The notes under the pieces were generated by a model that saw only the letters and a list, made by a program, of their open reading frames with translations, did not search any database and was not told the DNA's origin. From a virus, in the IMG/VR virus record IMGVR_UViG_3300030108_003057, positions 28,422-92,421 of that record: a stretch of 64,000 nucleotides of DNA; one strand, given 5' to 3'. The translations under genes were made by a program, and so were the position numbers. Of the stretch, positions 1 to 29,245 are shown in pieces; position 1 is the first letter of the stretch, and every line of letters starts with the position of its first letter.

Positions 1-303
1 AAATACAACTCCCATTATACAATTTATTGATATTACCTGATACTTGCCAGACACTTTATATGTTTCAACTGAAGGACTTATTCCTTTCAACCTACTACTT
101 TCAAAAGATACTCTTTGAGCATTTTGTGTTATCCATTGTATAATATGTGGTTCTTGTACTTCAACCCATACATATCCATCTAGTTCCAATTCTCCAGTTC
201 GATTGCATACATTACATTCTTTACCATCACAGATTGGACATTTTATATACTGAACATTTACGGGAAATCTAACAGTATTTACTCTTCCTCCGATGTTAGA
301 CAT
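1..303 (-). CDS. Hypothetical protein with CxxCxGxxCxxCxxxG zinc finger (runs off the window edge)
   Basis: Manual translation from ATG at 303: MSNIGGRVNTVRFPVNVQYIKCPICDGKECNVCNRTG..., open to position 1; not in ORF track. Confidence 0.65.
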   Translation of the reverse strand, partial: MSNIGGRVNTVRFPVNVQYIKCPICDGKECNVCNRTGELELDGYVWVEVQEPHIIQWITQNAQRVSFESSRLKGISPSVETYKVSGKYQVISINCIMGVVF

Positions 304-752
304 ATATCCTCAGTCCTCGATAAATACTCTTCACCTTCTTGTATATACCAACGCATTCTTTGGTTTTTACCAAGTACAATTGCTTCATTAAGAATTGGTT
401 TTTGAGTATTAATTGTCTTCCAATCAGTCCCACTAAAATAAGCATGACCAAATGGATGAGTATGAATCCAACACCTAAGAGGTAGTTTCATACCCTTTAC
501 TTTTTCATTTTTGTAGTCTACGAAACTTCCTGTCCCTTTACTAATAAATAAATTAAAGTCAGCGTCAACAATTACACTTACCTCTAGTTCGGTAAGATAT
601 TCCGTTGATACTTCCCAAATCATATCTAAAAAGTACGGGTCATAAAAACTCGCGTCGCATAAATCAAAGGCTTCATTTATTAAAGCCTTACACATATCCC
701 AATCACAATTAGGGTGTACTATACCCCTATCCTTATATTCTAATTCTTCCAT
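279..752 (-). CDS. JAB/MPN+ (JAMM) metalloprotease, Ubl-processing/deconjugating type
   Basis: Upstream Glu (LEVS) plus HTHPFGHAYFSGTD = HxH-x7-S-x2-D JAMM motif. Confidence 0.85.
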   Translation of the reverse strand: MEELEYKDRGIVHPNCDWDMCKALINEAFDLCDASFYDPYFLDMIWEVSTEYLTELEVSVIVDADFNLFISKGTGSFVDYKNEKVKGMKLPLRCWIHTHPFGHAYFSGTDWKTINTQKPILNEAIVLGKNQRMRWYIQEGEEYLSRTEDICLTSEEE

Positions 753-821
753 TTATTCTTCCTCCTTATTATTTTCATAAAACTTAAACCCAAATTCTTC
801 TAATGTTGTTTGTCTATACAT
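753..821 (-). CDS. 22-aa micro-protein containing a PIP-box-like motif
   Basis: MYRQTTLEEFGFKFYENNKEEE*; GGTGG RBS upstream; stop abuts the JAB start; QTTLEEF fits QxxLxxF. Confidence 0.55.
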   Translation of the reverse strand: MYRQTTLEEFGFKFYENNKEEE

Positions 822-822
822 T

Positions 823-912
823 CTACCACCTACATTGACTACATTCATGTTTACTTGATGTTAAATCTAAATGTAGATAAAATGCACATACTCCACATAG
901 TCTTTCTTCCAT
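823..912 (-). CDS. 29-aa zinc-finger micro-protein
   Basis: MEERLCGVCAFYLHLDLTSSKHECSQCRW*; two CxxC pairs; fills the gap downstream of E1. Confidence 0.55.
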   Translation of the reverse strand: MEERLCGVCAFYLHLDLTSSKHECSQCRW

Positions 913-916
913 TTAA

Positions 917-1489
917 TCACCCATTATAAGTTGCGTGTTTCTTTACGTCTTCACCATTAAACCATCTTTGAGTCCATTGTGCTCCATATCCGGCTGCTAC
1001 TACTTGCATAAAGTGAACACCAGAACTATCTCCTTCCCATGCGTTACCTTGGCAACTAAAAGAACCTTCTGGTCCAGCAGTAAATGATGAATATAATTCT
1101 GCTCTTTCTAATGAAGAAATCATAGCGGCATTTCTACCTTGTGCTCTTAAATCTAACCACTTTATTTTATCAGAACTATATAGTGTTCTTCTAATTGCTA
1201 GATTATCAGCACAACATATAACTAAATCATATCCTTTAACCTGCTTACTTGTTAATACCTTGTATGGTTGTGCCTTTACTGAACTATATCTATCAGCCAT
1301 AACATCAACCTTTAACTTTTCAATATCACCTTCATCAAAATTTTGATAGGTTATATTTTTAATCTCTACTACATCAGGGTCGTATACTGTAATATTATAG
1401 AGACCTGTCTTATCTAAAAGTGGAATAAGAAAACTTCCAATTCCACCTGCTCCAATTATCATAATCTTTCTTTTACTTTTCTTTCCCAT
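917..1489 (-). CDS. ThiF/MoeB/E1-family ubiquitin-like activating enzyme
   Basis: IIGAGGIGS nucleotide-binding loop, DPDVVEIKNITYQNF, K(V)DV, DLVICCADNLAIRR; candidate catalytic Cys in SFSCQ. Confidence 0.88.
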   Translation of the reverse strand: MGKKSKRKIMIIGAGGIGSFLIPLLDKTGLYNITVYDPDVVEIKNITYQNFDEGDIEKLKVDVMADRYSSVKAQPYKVLTSKQVKGYDLVICCADNLAIRRTLYSSDKIKWLDLRAQGRNAAMISSLERAELYSSFTAGPEGSFSCQGNAWEGDSSGVHFMQVVAAGYGAQWTQRWFNGEDVKKHATYNG

Positions 1490-2123
1490 TTCTAATCACC
1501 TTTAAATGTCTTTTCAAGCGAGGGAGACTAACTCCCATTTTTTCACAGACTTGTGCTTGAGTCAAATCTGAATACTCATAAAGTATCGCTGCCATGATAC
1601 TTCTTGTAATAGTATAATTACTACCTAAACTATCTAAGAATAACTTACCTTCCTCAGATAATTCTGTAATATCCGGCAAACCAATACGGTAATTTTCTCT
1701 TCCAAAAATACCGACCTTATGATAATGTTGTTTAATTCTTTTATTTATTTTAAACATTTTATTTTTATTTACTCCCATAAATGCACATATCTTATGTATA
1801 TTATATTCAGCATTTGATTGTGATAAGGTATAGTAAGTTACCGCGCAAAAAGCAGTAATTTCATCTACTCTATTAAATACTAATGCAACTTTTAATGTAT
1901 TATAATTTCTAATAATATCATTACGATAATTACGTAAATTAAATTCATTTAATAATATATCGAGAGGTGCAAAATCACGATTTGCCGCAACTTGGTTTTC
2001 GTTCTTTTCCCCACGTATAGTTAATATTCGTGATACTGCAAGCAACCCACAATCCTCACATTCATGTAAGTTAATTTCATGTATATATTTTAGATTAGTA
2101 CTATTACAATTTTCGCATGGCAT
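1473..2123 (-). CDS. Transcription factor B (TFB/TFIIB)-like protein
   Basis: N-terminal Zn ribbon CENC...CEDCG, helical cyclin-like middle, C-terminal HTH LTQAQVCEKMGVS similar to the TFB BRE-binding HTH. Confidence 0.7.
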   Translation of the reverse strand: MPCENCNSTNLKYIHEINLHECEDCGLLAVSRILTIRGEKNENQVAANRDFAPLDILLNEFNLRNYRNDIIRNYNTLKVALVFNRVDEITAFCAVTYYTLSQSNAEYNIHKICAFMGVNKNKMFKINKRIKQHYHKVGIFGRENYRIGLPDITELSEEGKLFLDSLGSNYTITRSIMAAILYEYSDLTQAQVCEKMGVSLPRLKRHLKVIRNGKEK

Positions 2124-2124
2124 T

Positions 2125-3300
2125 TTATATCAACACTCTACCTGCATTTATGTTACCTGTATCTTTAGTAATGTGTTCTAGGTGCGTTCTTACAGTAGAA
2201 ACATATGTCCCTAATACATGGTCATTCATTACTGCCATAGCGCGAGCAGCATATTGGTCACCTTTAGAAGCACCACTCATCATATTATCAATACAAATTG
2301 GTCCTCTTAGTTGTAGGTTAGTCTTTTCTGCACTCTTTAGTTTATTTAACTTTACTAAATCATGATTTCCACCACTGTTCCCACCAGAATAAACCATATA
2401 TGTAGATACATCTTGATAGCCTCGCTTCATACCATTATCAGCAATAATCCAATCTGTTAATTTACCCTTAACAAGTAGAGCATCTTGTTCCTTATCTTCC
2501 TTTTTAGTCTTAAACTTAATAACTGATATTTGTTCATAGTTATCGGATAAGCCTTTCAACAATTGCATGGCTCTTTTCTCGACGGCATCAGATTGCCTAT
2601 TTTGAGTCATGAATGCTTTCATTACTTTTGCTTGGGAATCAGTAACTCTAGTTTCATTTAGAACGAATACTAATTCTTCAGGACTGATAGCATAAAATTT
2701 ACCTCTACGATTGTCTTTTAGATAACTATTAGTAAAGTGTCTTAAGTCCTTTAGGGATATATCATACCAATAAGCATCATTAAGTTCTAAGGCAAAATCT
2801 TCTGGACCAATCTGAGCAACATTTAATCTACAAGTCTTGAGTTTATTATCATCGTCTATAAACTTATAAGGTACTCTATTTTCTAACACGTAAGATAATT
2901 CTGCTGGCATCTTAACACATCTATGAAAATAATCCCATAATTGTTTGTGACCTTCGGCATCATTATTAATATATATTGACCGAAGTAATACCCTTGTAAT
3001 ATTATTTAATATATCATTTATTGTTAAAGTAATATTATTTAATTCATATCTTCTACTGTTTCTAGAAATCAACATACCAAACCCCTTTACAAAAAATAAT
3101 AATTGACCGTCACCTTGATTTTTTGCTGGCATTAATATTCTTCTATTTACGACTTCTCTAAGTGCTACAAAGGTAGAATCAAGTCCAGTGCTAGTACTTC
3201 TTCTATTAGCATAAACAGTAAAAGTTCCATCTAGCCCTTCGATTTCAATATTAACATGACTCATACTATCACTAGCATGTCTAATTCTTATCGTCATCAT
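2125..3300 (-). CDS. Hypothetical protein (391 aa) with C-terminal GPICID...GDQ motif
   Basis: Long ORF tightly packed in the operon with TFB/E1/JAB. Confidence 0.75.
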   Translation of the reverse strand: MMTIRIRHASDSMSHVNIEIEGLDGTFTVYANRRSTSTGLDSTFVALREVVNRRILMPAKNQGDGQLLFFVKGFGMLISRNSRRYELNNITLTINDILNNITRVLLRSIYINNDAEGHKQLWDYFHRCVKMPAELSYVLENRVPYKFIDDDNKLKTCRLNVAQIGPEDFALELNDAYWYDISLKDLRHFTNSYLKDNRRGKFYAISPEELVFVLNETRVTDSQAKVMKAFMTQNRQSDAVEKRAMQLLKGLSDNYEQISVIKFKTKKEDKEQDALLVKGKLTDWIIADNGMKRGYQDVSTYMVYSGGNSGGNHDLVKLNKLKSAEKTNLQLRGPICIDNMMSGASKGDQYAARAMAVMNDHVLGTYVSTVRTHLEHITKDTGNINAGRVLI

Positions 3301-3551
3301 TATATATTTTCCTCCATAGTTATCTGCTCCATTAGAACACCGTCACATAAATCATTTAACTTCTCAGCCAAACTCTCACATATTCCGGGAATAGTTTTTC
3401 TTTGTAGACCTAACCAAACTTTATGTTGTACATTTAACACTACAACAGGATTAAGTCCTTCACCCTCATCATACTTGATAATTATAGGTGGTAGTTCTTC
3501 ATCATTTACCATTCTGAATTCTACCATCTTTTTAGTTCTTGGAGACATCAT
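3300..3551 (-). CDS. Hypothetical protein
   Basis: 83-aa ORF, start and stop overlap neighbours. Confidence 0.65.
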   Translation of the reverse strand: MMSPRTKKMVEFRMVNDEELPPIIIKYDEGEGLNPVVVLNVQHKVWLGLQRKTIPGICESLAEKLNDLCDGVLMEQITMEENI

Positions 3552-3835
3552 TCTTTCACTTCCGGCTTTGGACCCATTTTGATAACTTGTCTACTAACAA
3601 TAACATGAGGAAACTTCTCAATCAACAAAGGCATAATCTCATTCCAATTAATATCTCCTTCGTATTGTTTAGTCCACACACTACCGTTTGTCTTTAGAGA
3701 AGTCATACGAACTACAACTTTTTCATCAGTTACTGTTCCTACGTCTTTCAATACCGCCAAACTATCTGCGTCTATATTCAATCCACCGTTCTGCATTTTC
3801 ATCATTTCTTCTATATTCATTTTTTTCACTTCCAA
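3548..3835 (-). CDS. Hypothetical protein
   Basis: 95-aa ORF in operon; ATGA overlap. Confidence 0.6.
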   Translation of the reverse strand: MEVKKMNIEEMMKMQNGGLNIDADSLAVLKDVGTVTDEKVVVRMTSLKTNGSVWTKQYEGDINWNEIMPLLIEKFPHVIVSRQVIKMGPKPEVKE

Positions 3836-3850
3836 TTTTTTTGCAGGTTA

Positions 3851-5710
3851 TTATATTTCACAAGCCCCACCTGCACAAGCGATTTCACCGCTTAGGTCTG
3901 TGTTGTCCTTTTGTTCGACTACATTTCTTAAGTCTACCGATTTTAATGACTCCATCATCTCACGAAATTTAAGGACATTCGTGGACTCAAAAGGAGCCTG
4001 TATATATGTTCCACCATCATAAGGTAAAACTGAAAGACCGTTATACGACTTTCTATTATTCCACATCCATTCACCAACATCCTCCCATTCATTTTCACGA
4101 ATAGAAACTGTTGCTGAAACATTATGAGTATTCATACCATCTCGGTGTCCAGTATTAACCCAATTTTCTGCGAACCATTTTACTCTTTCTAATAAAGAAA
4201 TAGCAGGTTCAGTTCTTAGTGTTGCACCATCTGGTGCGCGTTGAGGAATACTAATAACTGCTTCAAGATGTGGCTTGAAGTGGTCATCCTCAATTAATTC
4301 TTTATGGTTTCTAGCCAAATAATCATAAATGGCTTCACTCTTTCCTACTCTAACTCTTCTAATATAGTGTTTATCATGCCATGCGTGAATACCGCTACTT
4401 GTACCTAATACAAGTGAAGTAGTTCCCGCAGGTTTAACACAAGTTAGTCTGGCGGCTTTATTAATTCCTATTTCTTCTGCAACTCTTATATTTACTGCTT
4501 TAACATGTTTTGCCGCCATTTTTACATCTAAACTCTTTAATTTATTAGATGCAATCCCCGTCATTGATACGCCAACTAACGCATCCTTTTCTGTTGTTTG
4601 CTTCCATACATCTCTAAGATAATGGAAATCTGTATACCCTGCTTGTAATGTTCCAACAAATGCTGCCGCTTTAACTCTATTGTTTAGGTCATGTTGACTT
4701 TCTACATTTGAAACATTTACTTCTGTTAGATTACAGAACTGATAAGGTCTTAACGCAATCTCGCAACATGGGTTAGTTCCCCAATCCTTATCATTTGAAA
4801 AGTATAATCCCGGTTCACCCGAACCTGAATCTTGTATTTTTTGCCATAGTTCTTTAAAAAATGCCTTTCTAACTCTACTACGAATTAGAACTGCACTATT
4901 ATTTGCTCGGCCTCTTTGTGGGTTTTGTTCCCACCATGCTCCACTCTTACATGAAATCATATCATCATCATCAGCACTAAATAAACTAATTAATGCTGCT
5001 CTACGAATTCCACCTGCTAATACTGAATCAGCAATGAGACACATAATATCATGTGCTTCAATGGTGGATAATTTACTACCATGTTCCTTTTCAGATAAAA
5101 TGTTCTCTATTTTTACAAGACATTCTCTTAAAGGAGTTGGACCGGGTGCTCGACCACCAGATGTTTTAAGTAATTCACCCTTTGGTCTAATATCTGAATA
5201 ATCAAACACTGGAGTTGTTTTATATCCTCCAAAATATGACTTCATCAATGCTTTAATTGAATCAGCCCAACCTTCTATACTATCACCAATTAAATATCTT
5301 CTAGTTCTTTTAGAAGGTTTTGATATTTCAGGTAATTGTGCTACATGATGTTTTTGTACTGAATAACCGACTCCGGTTCCTCCTAACAATAAAAACATAG
5401 CCTCCCAAAAAGAATCAATACAATCAATCGGCATATATGCACAATTGTAAACTCTATTTGGACTAACTTCAATTGGTTTACCTGCAAATTGCATACTTCG
5501 CATTGAAGGTAATACTTTCTTAGTTAATACAAACTGAGTGTATACATCTTTTATCTCATCTTTCAATTGAGGATATTTTTTCATATGCATTTCACAATTT
5601 CTATTACAAATCTCCTCCCATGTTTCTCTCCTAAACTTATCTGGCTTAAACTTGGCATATTTCATATGCACAATTATATCACTTAATATTTCTTGACTTA
5701 TTTCCATCAT
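3851..5710 (-). CDS. nrdJ: Class II (adenosylcobalamin-dependent) ribonucleotide reductase
   Basis: YNCAY, GGTGVGY, TNPCCEI thiyl-radical motif, CNLTEVN, VKPAGTTS, C-terminal CAGGACEI redox pair. Confidence 0.93.
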   Translation of the reverse strand: MMEISQEILSDIIVHMKYAKFKPDKFRRETWEEICNRNCEMHMKKYPQLKDEIKDVYTQFVLTKKVLPSMRSMQFAGKPIEVSPNRVYNCAYMPIDCIDSFWEAMFLLLGGTGVGYSVQKHHVAQLPEISKPSKRTRRYLIGDSIEGWADSIKALMKSYFGGYKTTPVFDYSDIRPKGELLKTSGGRAPGPTPLRECLVKIENILSEKEHGSKLSTIEAHDIMCLIADSVLAGGIRRAALISLFSADDDDMISCKSGAWWEQNPQRGRANNSAVLIRSRVRKAFFKELWQKIQDSGSGEPGLYFSNDKDWGTNPCCEIALRPYQFCNLTEVNVSNVESQHDLNNRVKAAAFVGTLQAGYTDFHYLRDVWKQTTEKDALVGVSMTGIASNKLKSLDVKMAAKHVKAVNIRVAEEIGINKAARLTCVKPAGTTSLVLGTSSGIHAWHDKHYIRRVRVGKSEAIYDYLARNHKELIEDDHFKPHLEAVISIPQRAPDGATLRTEPAISLLERVKWFAENWVNTGHRDGMNTHNVSATVSIRENEWEDVGEWMWNNRKSYNGLSVLPYDGGTYIQAPFESTNVLKFREMMESLKSVDLRNVVEQKDNTDLSGEIACAGGACEI

Positions 5711-6129
5711 AATTCCCCCATCAGGTTATCAATCTCTTTAATAAGATTGCCATTTTGTACTAATATCCAAGACCTTACTTCAATCCATTCAAAATCTTTC
5801 CAGTCTTTTAGTATTTCCCATCCATTTTTATTTATACAATTCCAAATACTATTATATTCTACCTTCTTGTAGGTAAAAACTAAGTCTCCACAACTTACCA
5901 ATTCTTTGTTTTTAGTACCGCGACCTATTATTATTCCCTCGTCATAAAAGTTAGGGTCAAGGGTTACTAGGTCGGTACCATTAAAATGATTATGAAACTC
6001 ATAAAGTTTTCTATAACCAACTGGTCTAAGTTTATAAAGTTTGATTAGTTCATCTGCTACATAATCAGTAGTAATATAATTTTTTAGGTGTTCCAAATCA
6101 TTTTCTTTAAGATATTCACTTATTAACAT
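5707..6129 (-). CDS. Hypothetical protein
   Basis: ORF-track 5707..6216; likely start is ATG 6129 (MLISEYLK), avoiding a long overlap. Confidence 0.55.
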   Translation of the reverse strand: MLISEYLKENDLEHLKNYITTDYVADELIKLYKLRPVGYRKLYEFHNHFNGTDLVTLDPNFYDEGIIIGRGTKNKELVSCGDLVFTYKKVEYNSIWNCINKNGWEILKDWKDFEWIEVRSWILVQNGNLIKEIDNLMGEL

Positions 6130-6676
6130 ATATTTTCTCCGTAAATAGTTGATGTGTTGTTGGCATCCAATCCGGTCTACCGTCATTTCTCCACGTTGCG
6201 AATTTCCATTTATCAATTCTATAATATTCTTTGTATGCTTCTATCGTACAGGGAAATAATTCCTCGTCTAATAGATGCGGATATATATTTTTCTTGATTG
6301 CTCTAACAAATGGTGTTAGACCTTGCTTTGGAAAGTCTGCTTCTTCTAACCAATCAAACACATCTTTTGATAATTCAGTCATTAGTCTTTCGACCTTGTG
6401 TTGTTTTTTGTATCTATCTGTATATTCCTCACAAATTGTCCAAGTATTTTTCCATGTCCAAATAAAATTGTCTTTGGATTCTCTAGCCCAAATAGTGGAA
6501 GGGTGTTTAGCCATACCTCTACTCATTCTTTTCCAAGGAATATTTTTTTGATAATTTAACTCATGCAAATTGTGGCAGATAATTTGTAATCCCTCAGTTG
6601 GCATCTTAACTACGTGTTTATCACATAGTTGTCTAGCCGCTAATACTGGGTCTTCATGTAAAAAGAATATATTCAT
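6116..6676 (-). CDS. Pyrimidine-dimer DNA glycosylase (DenV/endonuclease V-like family)
   Basis: MNIFFLHEDPVLAA..LCDKHVVKMPTE, HPSTIWARES..NFIW, EYTDRYKKQH, AYKEYY signature. Confidence 0.75.
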   Translation of the reverse strand: MNIFFLHEDPVLAARQLCDKHVVKMPTEGLQIICHNLHELNYQKNIPWKRMSRGMAKHPSTIWARESKDNFIWTWKNTWTICEEYTDRYKKQHKVERLMTELSKDVFDWLEEADFPKQGLTPFVRAIKKNIYPHLLDEELFPCTIEAYKEYYRIDKWKFATWRNDGRPDWMPTTHQLFTEKIYVNK

Positions 6677-6753
6677 TCTTCACACCTCTTACAATTACCA
6701 ATTCTATACCAGTGTCCGCATTTTTCGCATTGACTAGGTATTGCTCCACACAT
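6673..6753 (-). CDS. 26-aa zinc-finger micro-protein
   Basis: MCGAIPSQCEKCGHWYRIGNCKRCEE*; GGAGG RBS; ATGA overlap with the next gene. Confidence 0.55.
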   Translation of the reverse strand: MCGAIPSQCEKCGHWYRIGNCKRCEE

Positions 6754-6843
6754 TTAACCCATCCTCCTTGAACAAGTTATACAGTAATCACTGTAAGTAC
6801 TAAATCTTGGGTTCATACAGTTTTTTCTTCTACAAATCTTCAT
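6754..6843 (-). CDS. 29-aa Cys-rich micro-protein
   Basis: MKICRRKNCMNPRFSTYSDYCITCSRRMG*; stop abuts the next start. Confidence 0.45.
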   Translation of the reverse strand: MKICRRKNCMNPRFSTYSDYCITCSRRMG

Positions 6844-7015
6844 CTGTAAAACCATCCTTTGTAAATCCACTAATCATTTCTTCGCTTGCCTCCTTAACTT
6901 TAGTATTTCGCTCTACTTGTTTCATCCATAAAACAAATGCTCTTGAGTGAAATCGCCAAATAAAGAATAATAATACTTTATATAATAATTTATAATCCAT
7001 AAGTATCATCCTCAC
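6830..7015 (-). CDS. Hypothetical protein
   Basis: ORF track; probable start MDYKLL. Confidence 0.5.
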   Translation of the reverse strand: MRMILMDYKLLYKVLLFFIWRFHSRAFVLWMKQVERNTKVKEASEEMISGFTKDGFTDEDL

Positions 7016-7277
7016 ATGATTTATCTCTCCATTCTTGAAGTATGTCTAGTAACTGCTCAGAAGTTAAACAATAATCATCTAATAGTTCTTCAGTTCCAAA
7101 CCTTCCAGTGTTGGAGTAAAATTCTAACCACAATTTATTATCATCACGAGATATTTCACAAACAATCTCTTCTTTTTCTGAATGTGGGAAATTACAATCA
7201 GAGTTAGTGCATTCAACACCATCATCTTCTGCTCTAACTAATTTCCATTCACATCTAGGACATTCCATGTATGCCAT
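6990..7277 (-). CDS. Zinc-ribbon protein
   Basis: CPRC...CTNSDC at the N-terminus. Confidence 0.6.
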   Translation of the reverse strand: MAYMECPRCEWKLVRAEDDGVECTNSDCNFPHSEKEEIVCEISRDDNKLWLEFYSNTGRFGTEELLDDYCLTSEQLLDILQEWRDKSCEDDTYGL

Positions 7278-7427
7278 TTACTTTTCCTCCTGTATTTTAC
7301 TAATTACGAATCCACATTTAGGACACGCAATTCCTCTTTCTGCTGCTTCTTGACTATGTTTAACAGTGCAAGCCAGCCATTTTGTATAGTTTTCATATAA
7401 ATTATTCCATCGTTCTTCTGCATTCAT
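7278..7427 (-). CDS. 49-aa CPxCG micro-protein
   Basis: MNAEERWNNLYENYTKWLACTVKHSQEAAERGIACPKCGFVISKIQEEK*; exactly fills the gap between neighbours. Confidence 0.6.
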   Translation of the reverse strand: MNAEERWNNLYENYTKWLACTVKHSQEAAERGIACPKCGFVISKIQEEK

Positions 7428-7732
7428 TCTATTTTCCTCCACATTAATTGTCTTGAGCCACTATCAACTCTTGATACCCAACCGCCATCTTTCTTTAAGG
7501 CTCTTGAGATAAATTGACTCATGGCTAAAGTGTTTCCTCTATATTTAGCAACGTGTCTATTTACCGCAGCGGTTCTTGTTGTTTTACAAAGTAGTTTGTA
7601 ATATTCATCTAATACTTCATCCATTATTAAATTAGTACATACTTCTTCGTGTCTATTTGATACTGTAAGTACTGCTTCTACCATTACTTTCCAGTCTGCA
7701 CTTGTTCTTCTTTTTTGTTTTCTTTTTCTCAT
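7424..7732 (-). CDS. Basic hypothetical protein, possible winged-helix DNA binder
   Basis: 102 aa, basic, ends in a beta-hairpin-like wing (WVSRVDSGSRQLMWRK). Confidence 0.55.
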   Translation of the reverse strand: MRKRKQKRRTSADWKVMVEAVLTVSNRHEEVCTNLIMDEVLDEYYKLLCKTTRTAAVNRHVAKYRGNTLAMSQFISRALKKDGGWVSRVDSGSRQLMWRKIE

Positions 7733-7935
7733 TACAGAATCCTCCTACTTACACTATCTGCTTTTTCATAAGAATATCCCTGTTCTCGCAAACTTTTAAA
7801 TAATTTTATTCGGGATAATTCTTTTCCGACAGTTCTATCTAAGTATACTTTAGTATAAACTCTTAAATCATTAGCAGTAGCATGTTTTCTAATAGTATCT
7901 GTTTTTGGTAATTTTTTAAGTTTTTCTAAATTCAT
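7732..7935 (-). CDS. Hypothetical protein
   Basis: 67-aa ORF coupled to neighbours. Confidence 0.55.
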   Translation of the reverse strand: MNLEKLKKLPKTDTIRKHATANDLRVYTKVYLDRTVGKELSRIKLFKSLREQGYSYEKADSVSRRIL

Positions 7936-8267
7936 CTATCATCACCTTCACCTTTCAGTGTATTGTTTTCCATTCTTTTCTGAATCTTCTCTATGTTTAA
8001 CCTAGCCACTTTATCTAACTTAACATTAAGTTCGTTTGCTAGATTAGCAAGATACCATAATACATCACCTAATTCACGAATCAACGCTTCTTTATAATGT
8101 ATTGGGTATGTATTCTGTAATGACCCAGAATCCCTTATGTGCTTCTTTATCTTTTCAGCAACTTCTCCTGCTTCGCCACATAAACCTAAAGTAAGATACA
8201 ATAGGCTATTATCAGTGGGGAATATAGCAGTTTTGCTTGCTGTTCTTTGATAATGGTTCATATCCAT
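7932..8267 (-). CDS. mazG: MazG-like nucleotide pyrophosphohydrolase
   Basis: GLCGEAGEVAEKIKK and ELGDVLWYLANLA motifs; likely start MDMNHYQ at 8267. Confidence 0.88.
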   Translation of the reverse strand: MDMNHYQRTASKTAIFPTDNSLLYLTLGLCGEAGEVAEKIKKHIRDSGSLQNTYPIHYKEALIRELGDVLWYLANLANELNVKLDKVARLNIEKIQKRMENNTLKGEGDDR

Positions 8268-8560
8268 TATTCTTCCTCCGATAAATATACTAAGTCCGCC
8301 AATGCCAACGCCGCACTTATTGGCATACAATCTGGGTCACTAAGATATAAATTCATAGAAAATGTTCTTTCTACATATTCACATATAGAACCAGTTTGCA
8401 TATCGGTATATTGTATTGTATTTTCATAGTAATATCTACCGTTTCTATACTTAATATAGAATTGACTACCATCAACTAGATTTCCTTCAATCTGAGTTGG
8501 TGCTGCTTCACTTGTTACTTTAAAACTTTTTATTTTTATTTCTTTCTTCATTTTTTTCAC
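8267..8560 (-). CDS. Hypothetical protein
   Basis: 97-aa ORF with PTQIEG..DG..FYIKYRNG. Confidence 0.6.
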   Translation of the reverse strand: MKKMKKEIKIKSFKVTSEAAPTQIEGNLVDGSQFYIKYRNGRYYYENTIQYTDMQTGSICEYVERTFSMNLYLSDPDCMPISAALALADLVYLSEEE

Positions 8561-8605
8561 TTCCTTTTGAGTTTTTTACAGAGAACTCTAACTCTATTTA
8601 ATAGG

Positions 8606-8687
8606 TGCAGGTAGTAGGATTTGAACCTACGAAACATTATGTAATGGGACTTAAGCCCATCGCCTTTGACCACTCGGCTATACCTGC
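8606..8687 (-). tRNA. tRNA-Leu (anticodon TAA)
   Basis: Reverse complement folds: acceptor GCAGGTA/TACCTGC, D-arm GCCGAGTGGTCAAAGGC, anticodon stem ATGGG-CTTAAGT-CCCAT, long variable arm, T-arm GTAGG-TTCAAAT-CCTAC; CCA not fully encoded (CCT). Confidence 0.93.
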
Positions 8688-8849
8688 TTATTTTTTTAAT
8701 TCTTTTTTTATCCAGACAACTATTCTATGTCCGATAACAAATATAACAAAATATACCGCTAATTCTACTGCTAAAGCCGCCAATAAATATTTATCTGAAA
8801 CACATTCGGTATTACCCAAAACTGTCGTACAGACTTCAATGGTAGCCAC
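8688..8849 (-). CDS. 53-aa single-TM membrane micro-protein
   Basis: GTG start, ...YLLAALAVELAVYFVIFVIGHRIVVWIKKELKK*; stop directly abuts the tRNA 5' end; TATA-like sequence about 25 nt upstream. Confidence 0.5.
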   Translation of the reverse strand: MATIEVCTTVLGNTECVSDKYLLAALAVELAVYFVIFVIGHRIVVWIKKELKK

Positions 8850-8880
8850 ACAGTAGATTAACTATGCGTTATATTTTAAG

Positions 8881-9258
8881 TTATTCTTTTTGGGAATCCC
8901 AGACAACATTGTAATGTTCACAATAGTTAACTAAGGTTTGCCAATCTTCATCCATATCGATTCTATATTCATATCTCAATATTGGTAATGCGCCATTTAC
9001 AAAATCATCTAGTATGTATCTAGCACCTTCATCAGAAATATTATTAGCGATTGCTGATTCAAACTGATACACAAACGCACCCAATAATCCATATTTATTT
9101 ACTAAATCATCAGTATATTTCTCTATTTTACGCACAAATCTTCTTTCCTTGAAACCTTTCGATGCGTCAACGGTAATTGCTTTTAATATGTCTAATATAA
9201 GTTTAAACATATTATTCACCTTTAAATTCTTTAAATCGCTTTCTATATAAAAAAGCAA
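8881..9258 (-). CDS. Hypothetical protein
   Basis: ORF track; probable start MFKLIL after GGTGA. Confidence 0.6.
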   Translation of the reverse strand: MLFYIESDLKNLKVNNMFKLILDILKAITVDASKGFKERRFVRKIEKYTDDLVNKYGLLGAFVYQFESAIANNISDEGARYILDDFVNGALPILRYEYRIDMDEDWQTLVNYCEHYNVVWDSQKE

Positions 9259-9619
9259 ACATGTGTTTTTTAAACTTAGTCGTTGGTGCGTGCATTTGTT
9301 GTTTAATCCAAGAATTCATTTTTGCTACTTTAGTTTCGTCATTTATTAATGCCAACTTAGGGATAGCCTCACCTCTTTTATTTAATATAATAGTTCCATC
9401 CTTTTCCTTATGAACAATTAAACGACCATCTTCACCATATTGTCTATCAACACCATTTTCTAATTCGGTAATCTTATCTTTAATTCTTTGTGGTGAATCT
9501 GCTCCACCTACATATCTTCTTAATCTATAATCATATCTTTGCTGGCATTCTTCATGAATGTCGCTTAATAATAAAAATTCTTTATATCCATTCCAATCTT
9601 GTTTTTTTCTCCAAGTCAT
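9212..9619 (-). CDS. Hypothetical protein
   Basis: 135-aa ORF with GGAG RBS. Confidence 0.65.
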   Translation of the reverse strand: MTWRKKQDWNGYKEFLLLSDIHEECQQRYDYRLRRYVGGADSPQRIKDKITELENGVDRQYGEDGRLIVHKEKDGTIILNKRGEAIPKLALINDETKVAKMNSWIKQQMHAPTTKFKKHMFAFLYRKRFKEFKGE

Positions 9620-9749
9620 TTTATCTCTCCATTTAAAATAATTAAATCTTATGTGTAAAACCCGGTTCTTGCCGCTTGGTTCTACATGAATTTCCAGTTT
9701 TGTTCACCCAGACTGGAAACTGGGCCAAAATGTTAACTTAATTTTAGTC

Positions 9750-9962
9750 CTAACAACCGCCAACGATGGCTTGCGTTAGAACTACTTCATTTACATCATT
9801 AAAGTTGATGTTCGCAATTTCTTCACGGGAAACAAGTTCACCGTCAATGTATGCCCAATGAGTAGGATGCTCAATAATTTGCTCCAATGCCCCTTCAGCA
9901 CTCATTGATAGTTCGGTATGACCTGTTTCATTTAGTATTGTTACCTTTACCATTTTACTCAC
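9750..9962 (-). CDS. Ubiquitin-like (beta-grasp, ThiS/SAMP-like) protein ending -VGG-C
   Basis: 70 aa; strand-strand-helix-strand pattern (MVKVTIL..TELSM..ALEQII..WAYIDGELV..EVVLTQAIVGGC); di-glycine at the penultimate positions. Confidence 0.75.
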   Translation of the reverse strand: MSKMVKVTILNETGHTELSMSAEGALEQIIEHPTHWAYIDGELVSREEIANINFNDVNEVVLTQAIVGGC

Positions 9963-27842: not shown

Positions 27843-29245
27843 TGAGTGAATATAAAGCATTAGAAAATATTTCTGATGATATTCAGGAAATAATTAAAAA
27901 CGCAACAACAAGATGTATTAGGGCAATTGAAGCAAGAGTGCCTAACACTGGTGTAGCGGGTGAAGGTAATAGACCTAAAAAAATTATAGAAATAATGAGA
28001 AGACACGGTGAAGGCCAATTTGCTAGAAGTACAGTAAATCTGTTCGATGGAATGGGTAGAGCCTTAGATTTAATAGAGATATTACAAAATAAAGATGAAA
28101 TACTAGTAGAAGATATACAAAATCTAAGAGAAGCACAAGAAATATTAAAAACAATATTAGCAGATAAAACTCATAAAAAGAAAGCAGGAGGCACAAACCC
28201 TAGAAATATTAGATTTAGAGTAGTTACTAAATTTAAATTAGAAGATGGTAAACCAGTTGTTGTCGATAGAGGTGATGTTTTTGGTCACTATAAAACACCA
28301 ACTGTAATAAGATATTTAGATGCTAGAAAGGAGTATGCTAGACAACAAGGTGAAGAATATACTGGGCCGAACTATAAAGAAAGTTCAGAAGATGTTAGGT
28401 TTTGGGCTAGTGATAAACCAAATACTAGCAAACCACCATTGTTTGTTGCTCTCCAAACATTTGAAGCAGAATTAAGAAAAATCCTTAAAGAAATAAAAAC
28501 GCCACCAGAACCAGCAGACCCAATAGTAATAAATATAGATAAAGGTGTTAAGTTAGAACCGTTTTCTAAATTAGCATCATTAAAGGAAGGATTTCGTGAG
28601 ATAGTAAGTAATCCAGAAATATATCCCAAAATACCAACACGTAGAGATGGTAAAAAGGTATTAGGTTCAAATAAACCAATAATTGTAAGTTATGATAAAA
28701 GTCAAAGAGCAGGTCAAAAAACCTTTACATCTGAAGTAACTGAATATATTTTTAGAATAACAAGTAACGCTGATAGAAAAATATTAGATGAGGCAGTTCC
28801 GGGTTGGGGAGAAGAAGGTAAAGATTTGGCTCAAACAAGTTCTTTAGAAGAATTTAGACTTAAAGTTAATAGCACAAGACGCACAAAGACATTAGTTAGA
28901 TTAACATTGGGTGGAGAACTATCAACCATTAGAATACCGGATAGAACACCGGGAGTAGTATTGAAAGCACAAGAATTTTTAGAAGAAATAAATAAAAGTA
29001 GATATAGCGATAAAAATAGACAATCAAAAAAATTAGAAATAATAGATAAAATATTGACTAACTCTTCTGAGCCTTTAACTGTTAGAGAAATTTTAGAGCG
29101 TTGGAGAGGTTTAACAAATTATGCTGGTAGACCATATAAAAATATTCCAACTACTAATGAATTAAGTATGATACTAAAACGACACGGTTATAAGATAGTT
29201 AACACAGTAAGAAAAATATCATATTGGGGACCGAGGAAGGAATAA
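27842..29245 (+). CDS. Hypothetical protein with a C-terminal winged-helix-like domain
   Basis: EPLTVREILERW...IPTTNELSMILKRHGY. Confidence 0.75.
   Translation: MSEYKALENISDDIQEIIKNATTRCIRAIEARVPNTGVAGEGNRPKKIIEIMRRHGEGQFARSTVNLFDGMGRALDLIEILQNKDEILVEDIQNLREAQEILKTILADKTHKKKAGGTNPRNIRFRVVTKFKLEDGKPVVVDRGDVFGHYKTPTVIRYLDARKEYARQQGEEYTGPNYKESSEDVRFWASDKPNTSKPPLFVALQTFEAELRKILKEIKTPPEPADPIVINIDKGVKLEPFSKLASLKEGFREIVSNPEIYPKIPTRRDGKKVLGSNKPIIVSYDKSQRAGQKTFTSEVTEYIFRITSNADRKILDEAVPGWGEEGKDLAQTSSLEEFRLKVNSTRRTKTLVRLTLGGELSTIRIPDRTPGVVLKAQEFLEEINKSRYSDKNRQSKKLEIIDKILTNSSEPLTVREILERWRGLTNYAGRPYKNIPTTNELSMILKRHGYKIVNTVRKISYWGPRKE

Follow-up and report, generated by a model that had tools for sequence, protein, structure and literature searches.

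Conjugation of ubiquitin-like proteins (Ubls) in prokaryotes is known from cells, as sampylation in archaea and as the phage-fighting Bil, Bub, and CBASS systems of bacteria. Here, we describe a gene set in which the theme of Ubl, E1, sometimes E2, and JAB protease appears in a new form and on the virus side. It lies in a 64,000-nucleotide (nt) stretch of DNA from what appears to be a marine archaeal virus (IMG/VR record IMGVR_UViG_3300030108_003057, positions 28,422 to 92,421; this whole stretch is called the window below). Its main members are a Ubl with a C-terminal Gly-Gly, a short ThiF-type E1-like enzyme, a JAMM protease (JAB), and a 391-amino-acid (aa) protein, p391, with a predicted E2-like domain. 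From sequence and modeled folds, we put at roughly 55% the probability that these genes specify a virus-encoded system for Ubl protein conjugation, one that belongs to none of the named families; we consider it likely that the Ubl is processed by the JAB and activated by the E1.

Sampylation in Haloferax volcanii, with its SAMP1-3, UbaA, and HvJAMM1 (PMC4443979, PMC4895103), resembles the viral set in several ways. Both have an archaeal setting, a small ThiS/MoaD-like beta-grasp protein ending in Gly-Gly, a single ThiF-type E1, and a JAMM protease, and both link proteostasis with transcription factors: TBP2 is a target of sampylation, and the viral set holds a TFB gene. The viral Ubl differs in being made with a tail, and the viral E1 has 190 aa and scores 32.5 bits with the UbaA equivalog model NF047750, for which the cut-off is 450. 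Furthermore, sampylation uses no E2, whereas the viral set has a predicted E2/UEV-like partner, and the viral system as a whole is encoded by a virus rather than by a cell. An earlier, sequence-only reading of the window had called the set sampylation-like; the term holds by analogy and not by membership, since the E1 is no ortholog of UbaA.

The bacterial BilABCD system (PMC10557695) has the same four parts, a Ubl, an E1, an E2, and a JAB. Its JAB, BilC, pre-processes the Ubl, BilA, just after the C-terminal Gly, trimming one residue in what is a proven conjugation system, and BilA (8tyz_B) is among the fold matches of the viral Ubl. However, the E1 of this system, BilD, has two domains (an inactive and an active adenylation domain, with a CYS insertion), whereas the viral E1 is a single short domain; the viral E2-like domain is the tail of a 391-aa protein; and Bil is host-side and antiviral. 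CBASS type II, with the E1-E2 fusion Cap2 and the JAB Cap3 (PMC10097602), differs from the viral set, which has neither a CD-NTase nor an E1-E2 fusion, and its conjugated moiety is the cyclase itself rather than a free Ubl. With the PADLOC models for Bil and CBASS type II, only the Rossmann half of the viral E1 matched E1-E2 models, and the Ubl, JAB, and p391 matched none. The Ub-E1-E2-RING-Rpn11 operon of Caldiarchaeum subterraneum (PMC5654768, PMC3082918) likewise combines an archaeal Ubl, E1, E2, and JAMM protein (Rpn11-like), and its Rpn11-like protein and ubiquitin are among the weak matches of the viral JAB and Ubl. In sequence, its proteins plainly resemble those of eukaryotes. The viral proteins match none of these families, and no RING E3 was recognized among them.

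The members of the viral set (Table 1) travel together. IMG/VR was scanned with the Ubl alone, yielding 176 loci, of which 80 were kept; all counts out of 80 below refer to these. Partners were located in the 80 loci by tblastn, and all open reading frames (ORFs) were then clustered. p391 was present in 77 loci, the E1 in 74, p83 in 73, and JAB in 71, and a TFB-like family in 75, always between p391 and the E1. The members were always on the strand of the Ubl and in a fixed order, and a missing E1, JAB, p391, or p83 nearly always meant that the locus ended before the gene. Since the loci were picked by the Ubl alone, and the E1 and JAB nonetheless accompany it this often, with strand and order preserved, the association of the three is far above chance. 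The gene set is real and strongly conserved, and its Ubl, E1, and JAB are apparently functional. The sequence-only reading had placed these three ORFs on one strand, and all are indeed on the minus strand; its grouping of them is borne out across related viral genomes.

Table 1. Members of the viral gene set, with positions in the window
Feature	Position	Strand	Basis or remark
Ubl precursor	9750..9962	-	70-aa ORF, beta-grasp, ending in AIVGG plus one Cys
Minimal E1-like adenylating enzyme, ThiF superfamily, 190 aa	917..1489	-	Pfam ThiF match, MoeB alignment
JAMM/MPN+ metalloprotease (JAB), 157 aa	279..752	-	Invariant E57, H97, H99, S107, D110
p391, 391 aa, virus-only family	2125..3300	-	UBC (E2/UEV)-like fold predicted for C-terminal residues 232-391 (window 2128-2607)
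TFB/TFIIB-like factor, zinc ribbon and helix-turn-helix (HTH)	1473..2123	-	Weak HTH matches; TFIIB zinc ribbon in a longer relative
p83, conserved 83-aa protein	3300..3551	-	Travels with the set (73/80 loci)

The Ubl is predicted with confidence to be a beta-grasp protein. AlphaFold2, run with an alignment, gave a model with a predicted local distance difference test (pLDDT) value of 87, and the top rows of a Foldseek search were all ubiquitin-family or sulfur-carrier beta-grasps (probability, 0.97-0.99; E value, only 3e-3), in agreement with the fold that the sequence-only reading had suspected. These scores fix the modeled fold; they do not tell modifiers and sulfur carriers apart. In sequence, the Ubl falls outside all named families: there was no Pfam match at an E value of 0.1 and no PDB sequence-profile match, tblastn against phage records found nothing, and the Pfam ThiS/MoaD model PF02597 left the Ubl gene unmatched even at an E value of 10 when five related genomes, four of which are 92% complete or more, were searched one by one. 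Marine metagenomes hold 79 homologues. Among 185,579 cellular species scanned, the family appeared only on two short contigs of one Altibacter metagenome-assembled genome (MAG), most simply mis-binned viral DNA. To judge by relatives, which begin with MVKV, translation probably starts at the ATG at 9953 (67 aa) and not at the GTG at 9962.

The C terminus is the most telling part of the Ubl. The motif AIVGG is invariant in all relatives, and the Gly-Gly whose conservation the sequence-only reading had assumed is present without exception, both across 24 aligned homologues and throughout the 80 loci. What follows it varies in both length and sequence: 8 loci have no tail, 15 have one residue, 52 have two, and 5 have four to nine, and metagenome proteins carry up to 9 more residues. 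A Cys is common in the tail and not constant (C, CY, SC, HC, NC). An invariant AIVGG with a variable tail is the pattern expected of a processed precursor. Two other invariant motifs, NETGHTEL in the first hairpin and HPTHW before strand 3, are at the place where ubiquitin has its Leu8-Ile44 recognition patch, from which we infer that they form a docking surface in the model.

The candidate processing enzyme has an intact JAMM signature, E57...H97xH99-x7-S107-xx-D110, whose five residues are invariant in 24 relatives. It scores 18 bits with Pfam Prok-JAB, under the cut-off of 25, and its weak profile matches include AMSH-LP (E value, 1e-4, in the motif region only), STAMBP, Sst2, and the Rpn11-like protein of Caldiarchaeum. 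The sequence-only reading gave the JAMM protease the task of maturing the Ubl after Gly-Gly. An invariant Gly-Gly with a tail that needs removal fits that task; however, all 8 viruses whose Ubl already ends at Gly-Gly retain JAB, along with the E1 and p391. By this comparison of sequences, trimming is not the only job of JAB.

Retention of JAB where there is no tail to trim might also be expected if the viral proteins interfered with a Ubl (SAMP) network of the host or with a Ubl-based defense, the Ubl, E1, and JAB serving as a decoy, as a competitor, or to remove conjugates. Given that bacterial Bil and CBASS Cap2/Cap3 are antiviral (PMC10557695, PMC10097602), a virus could conceivably have a counter-system, and the Ubl family hardly occurs in cellular genomes. 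A lone deconjugase, however, would not need a Ubl with an invariant Gly-Gly, an E1, and p391, all strictly co-conserved with it, and the lack of any PADLOC match for JAB, the Ubl, and p391 likewise speaks against such a role. We regard interference as improbable.

The E1 is recognizable in its N-terminal half. It scores 65 bits with Pfam ThiF PF00899 (cut-off, 28), a match confined to the N-terminal half of the profile, and hhalign aligns residues 7-107 with residues 29-139 of Escherichia coli MoeB at a probability of 96%. Invariant in the family are GxGGIGS, D37xD39, K60, D95-N96, R100, and C146; K60 corresponds to MoeB K86, and D95-N96 corresponds to MoeB D130-N131, which includes the Mg-binding Asp. 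The C-terminal half has invariant WLDLR and SFSCQG motifs, and C146 is, by its conservation, a candidate catalytic Cys. The curated ThiF, MoeB, UbaA, Cap2, and PRTRC models all scored the protein far below their cut-offs. Its shortness is real, since the family has more than 1252 clusters, all of about 185 aa, on contigs of up to 98 kb.

Complex prediction for the E1 with the trimmed Ubl gave a score of 0.35, compared to 0.13 for the best control. Of 80 solved complexes, 58 reached that mark, as did 2 of 110 mismatches; at scores of 0.60 or less, only 7 of the 80 did, together with both mismatches. The runs agreed in at least 95% of contacts, and the pLDDT of the partners was at least 83. E1-Ubl complexes have already been solved, so this pass may reflect the memory of the model.

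One could also imagine that these genes are neighbors without a common pathway, with the E1 adenylating some other substrate (a peptide or nucleotide, as MccB and TcdA do) and the Ubl serving as a beta-grasp adaptor that is never conjugated. The E1 profile does match MccB and TcdA as well, the half of the protein that binds Ubl in known E1s is unrecognizable here, and the Ubl gene is 8 kb from the E1 gene in the window. Such an arrangement would leave the invariant Gly-Gly and its variable tail unexplained, it is at odds with near-universal co-occurrence and with the spacing of 3-6 kb in more distant relatives, and the complex prediction gave it weak contrary evidence rather than none. Separate pathways therefore seem very improbable to us.

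p391 is a probable carrier between E1 and target. Its model has a pLDDT of 81.7, and residues 238-391 comprise one helix and four strands, then a long loop that runs up to the motif GPICIDN, and last three helices. C336 in that motif is invariant and in the model lies, at the level of fold elements, between strand 4 and helix 2, the place of the catalytic Cys in E2 enzymes. Among the top 1000 Foldseek matches, alignments to whole E2 cores spanned up to 123 residues, each match being weak alone. From the model, the C-terminal domain is thus predicted to be UBC (E2/UEV)-like. Other searches place the family apart: Foldseek with the p391 model against PDB gave nothing at an E value below 0.05, a PDB sequence-profile search gave nothing, the ESM Atlas gave no usable match, UQ_con had no match in p391 or the five related genomes, and the p391 family has no conserved HPN motif. 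A hidden Markov model (HMM) of the C-terminal domain, searched against 1.84 billion proteins, found 154 proteins, all of its own viral family and without a link to E2s; nearly all have 390-480 aa and the same architecture or are fragments of it. An E2/UEV-like domain in p391 would strengthen the case for protein tagging.

We imagine the following pathway for conjugation, on the basis of the genes, motifs, predicted folds, and co-occurrence that we observe; its chemistry is proposed at every step. The Ubl precursor would carry 0-9 residues beyond the invariant Gly-Gly. The JAMM protease would take off the tail and would probably reverse conjugates as well. The minimal ThiF-type E1 would then adenylate the exposed Gly, and the Ubl would pass as a thioester to a Cys, for which E1 C146 and then C336 in the E2-like domain of p391 are candidates. 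Finally, it would be attached to lysines of viral or host proteins. As outcomes of such tagging, the sequence-only reading had conjectured proteasomal removal or counter-defense. A proteasome family was absent from the five related genomes, in which the single AAA match was a protein of about 310 aa. We favor protein tagging because of the E2/UEV-like partner, a JAB that is kept independently of the tail, the transcription-factor and chaperone neighbors of the set, and the precedent of BilC and BilA.

The strongest competitor to tagging is sulfur transfer. Among known sulfur-carrier systems, QbsE/QbsC/QbsD and CysO/MoeZ/Mec+ resemble the viral set in having a ThiS-like protein with a short Cys-containing tail after Gly-Gly (GG-CF in QbsE) or a JAMM-cut Gly-Gly-Cys bond, together with a ThiF-type E1. 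By analogy, the viral E1 would adenylate the Ubl, host enzymes would make the thiocarboxylate, and the sulfur would go to tRNA (s2U34), a cofactor, or a small molecule; JAB would do no more than mature the carrier or free a Cys adduct, as do QbsD and Mec+. The C-terminal pattern of the Ubl is ThiS-like, some homologues carry the Joint Genome Institute (JGI) name "sulfur carrier protein ThiS," and many tails begin with or hold a Cys, recalling GG-CF of QbsE and the bond cut by Mec+. Archaeal SAMPs serve both roles through one E1. Moreover, an AT-rich virus (32% GC) with its own tRNA-Leu(TAA) could gain from more tRNA 2-thiolation, as s2U34 helps in reading AAA, GAA, and CAA codons, which such a genome is expected to use heavily.

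The genes expected to accompany a sulfur relay were not found in the window or in the five related genomes. The E1s of the Qbs and CysO systems bear rhodanese domains, and their operons hold sulfur-acceptor enzymes; no rhodanese or sulfur-acceptor enzyme was found with the viral set in the five related genomes. There, targeted HMMs found no rhodanese, PP-loop thiolase, MoaE, cysteine desulfurase, PALP, or ThiS-family gene. The sequence-only reading had seen no sulfur-relay gene in the window, and Pfam scans of the window ORFs also find none. The failure of the Ubl to match Pfam ThiS points the same way, as do the E2/UEV-like protein with an invariant Cys that is always beside the E1, the retention of JAB where the tail is absent, and neighbors that are a transcription factor and chaperones rather than metabolic genes. 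On this evidence, we consider a sulfur carrier rather unlikely.

Several points nevertheless weigh against conjugation. In fold and in identity (22-23%), the Ubl is nearest ThiS, MoaD, and SAMP1, which are either sulfur carriers or proteins of dual function. JAMM trimming of a precursor is reportedly known for a sulfur carrier too, QbsE, whose GG-CF tail is processed by QbsD, and host enzymes could supply the steps missing from the virus. The Ubl family is poor in Lys (median, 1.5%, compared to 8.3% across 60 conserved families of the same loci), a feature that does not discriminate, since E. coli ThiS also has no Lys. In the E1, an invariant Tyr48, with an invariant Lys44 nearby, replaces Arg73 of the SNLxRQ motif of MoeB; the zinc-binding CxxC pairs are absent; and residues 108-190 align to no known E1. 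The complex prediction lends the modeled E1-Ubl pairing weak support, and the basis throughout is sequence and predicted structure.

ORF clustering gave a core that reads p83, (c7), Ubl, (RNR), p391, TFB-like factor, E1, JAB, where RNR is class II ribonucleotide reductase. In many genomes, three further genes come next, for a small protein that looks like GroES, for a thermosome subunit, and for a protein with a DnaJ-type zinc finger; the last two are proteostasis neighbors of the set. p83 had no family match in Pfam and curated-model searches. The sequence-only reading regarded the E1 and JAB genes as one operon. For p83-p391-TFB-E1, the idea is plausible, as these genes overlap or lie end to end: the TFB-like gene overlaps the E1 start by 17 nt, and p391 is directly upstream of TFB-E1 in every genome. 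JAB follows after a gap of 164 nt with two micro-ORFs, and the Ubl is upstream on the same strand at a distance of 8.3 kb in the window and 3-6 kb in more distant relatives.

The two micro-ORFs between the E1 and JAB are of some interest in themselves. One, of 29 aa (823-912, minus strand), has the pattern CxxC-x14-CxxC of a mini zinc ribbon. The other, of 22 aa (753-821, minus strand), abuts the JAB start, and its QTTLEEFGF resembles a PCNA-binding box, without the second adjacent aromatic residue. Directly after JAB comes a DnaJ-type protein with a CxxCxGxxCxxC zinc finger (1-303, minus strand), cut by the end of the window. In relatives, a 133-aa protein of the same DnaJ-type family follows the thermosome gene, and a 72-aa GroES-like-looking protein precedes it; together, the DnaJ-type, GroES-like-looking, and thermosome genes make a small chaperone cluster adjoining the Ubl set. 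More distant relatives (L024-L080) have a 53-aa protein with a C2HC zinc site (e.g., L033:12881-13048) and a 117-aa protein between Ubl/RNR and p391, neither of which is in the window. Two candidate partners were dropped. The Ubl gene is often just upstream of RNR, which is missing in about one-third of the loci; and a zinc-finger family, c10, that adjoins p391 in distant relatives was considered as an E3 and is too small to be a RING, having a single C2HC site.

What kind of virus carries this set? Magroviruses are uncultured tailed viruses assigned to Marine Group II archaea; they have an HK97-type capsid nearest to those of haloarchaeal tailed viruses, a genome of 65-100 kb, and archaeal-type replication genes, and some groups have a chaperonin, RNR, and tRNA-Leu (PMC5434244). 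The window has a GC content of 29-37%. Its first 11 kb or so are a block of minus-strand genes, opposed by a block of plus-strand genes that starts near 16 kb and encodes terminase, portal, prohead protease, HK97-type capsid protein, tail tube, and ATP-dependent DNA ligase. Matches of the capsid protein are restricted to archaeal tailed viruses (HCTV-1, HVTV-1, and viruses of methanogens), RNR and tRNA-Leu(TAA) are encoded, and the IMG/VR relatives, contigs measuring 86-96 kb, encode a thermosome subunit, UvrD helicase, and ATP-dependent ligase. Since these features agree with the published description, the window fits, by its gene content, a marine archaeal tailed virus of the magrovirus type. 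Megablast of 12 kb of the window against phage records gave no match.

Other genes of the early block deserve mention. The tRNA-Leu, with anticodon TAA (8604-8687, minus strand), suits an AT-rich virus, and group B magroviruses are also reported to have a tRNA-Leu. At 7932-8330 and 6116-6676 (minus strand), respectively, are genes for a MazG-type nucleotide pyrophosphohydrolase and a PHROG 624-like protein; the PHROG 624-like protein has weak similarity to pyrimidine-dimer glycosylase, and its family is kept near the Ubl set in 68 of the 80 loci.

In the late/structural block (16810-55500, plus strand), 20 proteins start with M-x-W-x-x-[ILV]-[ILV]-K (e.g., MSWRNILK, MWWDIIK, and MSWFDVIK), compared to 0-1 in 20 shuffles, and a related complete genome, G002 (L081-L082), has 19 proteins with such a start. 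This leader with its conserved Lys might serve to target proteins to the capsid or as a protease signal, or, conceivably, as a site for tagging. One can envision a joint reading, which we hold to be a long shot: that magroviruses own a complete E1-E2-deconjugase pathway made of families without cellular counterpart, a new E2-like family among them, and that its substrates are the roughly 20 M-x-W leader proteins, with Lys8 as acceptor, so that the Ubl would mark or sort virion or cargo proteins together with the viral chaperonin.

The main texts of four magrovirus papers (PMC5434244, PMC10160649, PMC11706807, and PMC8651126) do not mention ubiquitin, ThiF, JAB, or SAMP. A MoeB/ThiF gene has been listed among the most prevalent auxiliary genes of archaeal viruses, with speculation about ubiquitination, in a host-prediction paper that describes no Ubl, JAB, or E2-like partner (PMC8276007). 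With the set described here, Ubl machinery is found in a virus, and in a group that is among the most abundant archaeal viruses of the ocean; the parts of the set are very reduced and divergent, with an E1 of 185-190 aa and a Ubl and an E2-like protein outside the named families. If the Ubl instead moves sulfur, it would represent a new kind of viral auxiliary metabolism. If it is conjugated, the set would be a minimal and tractable combination of E1, E2, and deubiquitinase for mechanistic work and the first case of an archaeal virus with its own protein-tagging system, and it would give a handle on how uncultured viruses reprogram Marine Group II archaea.

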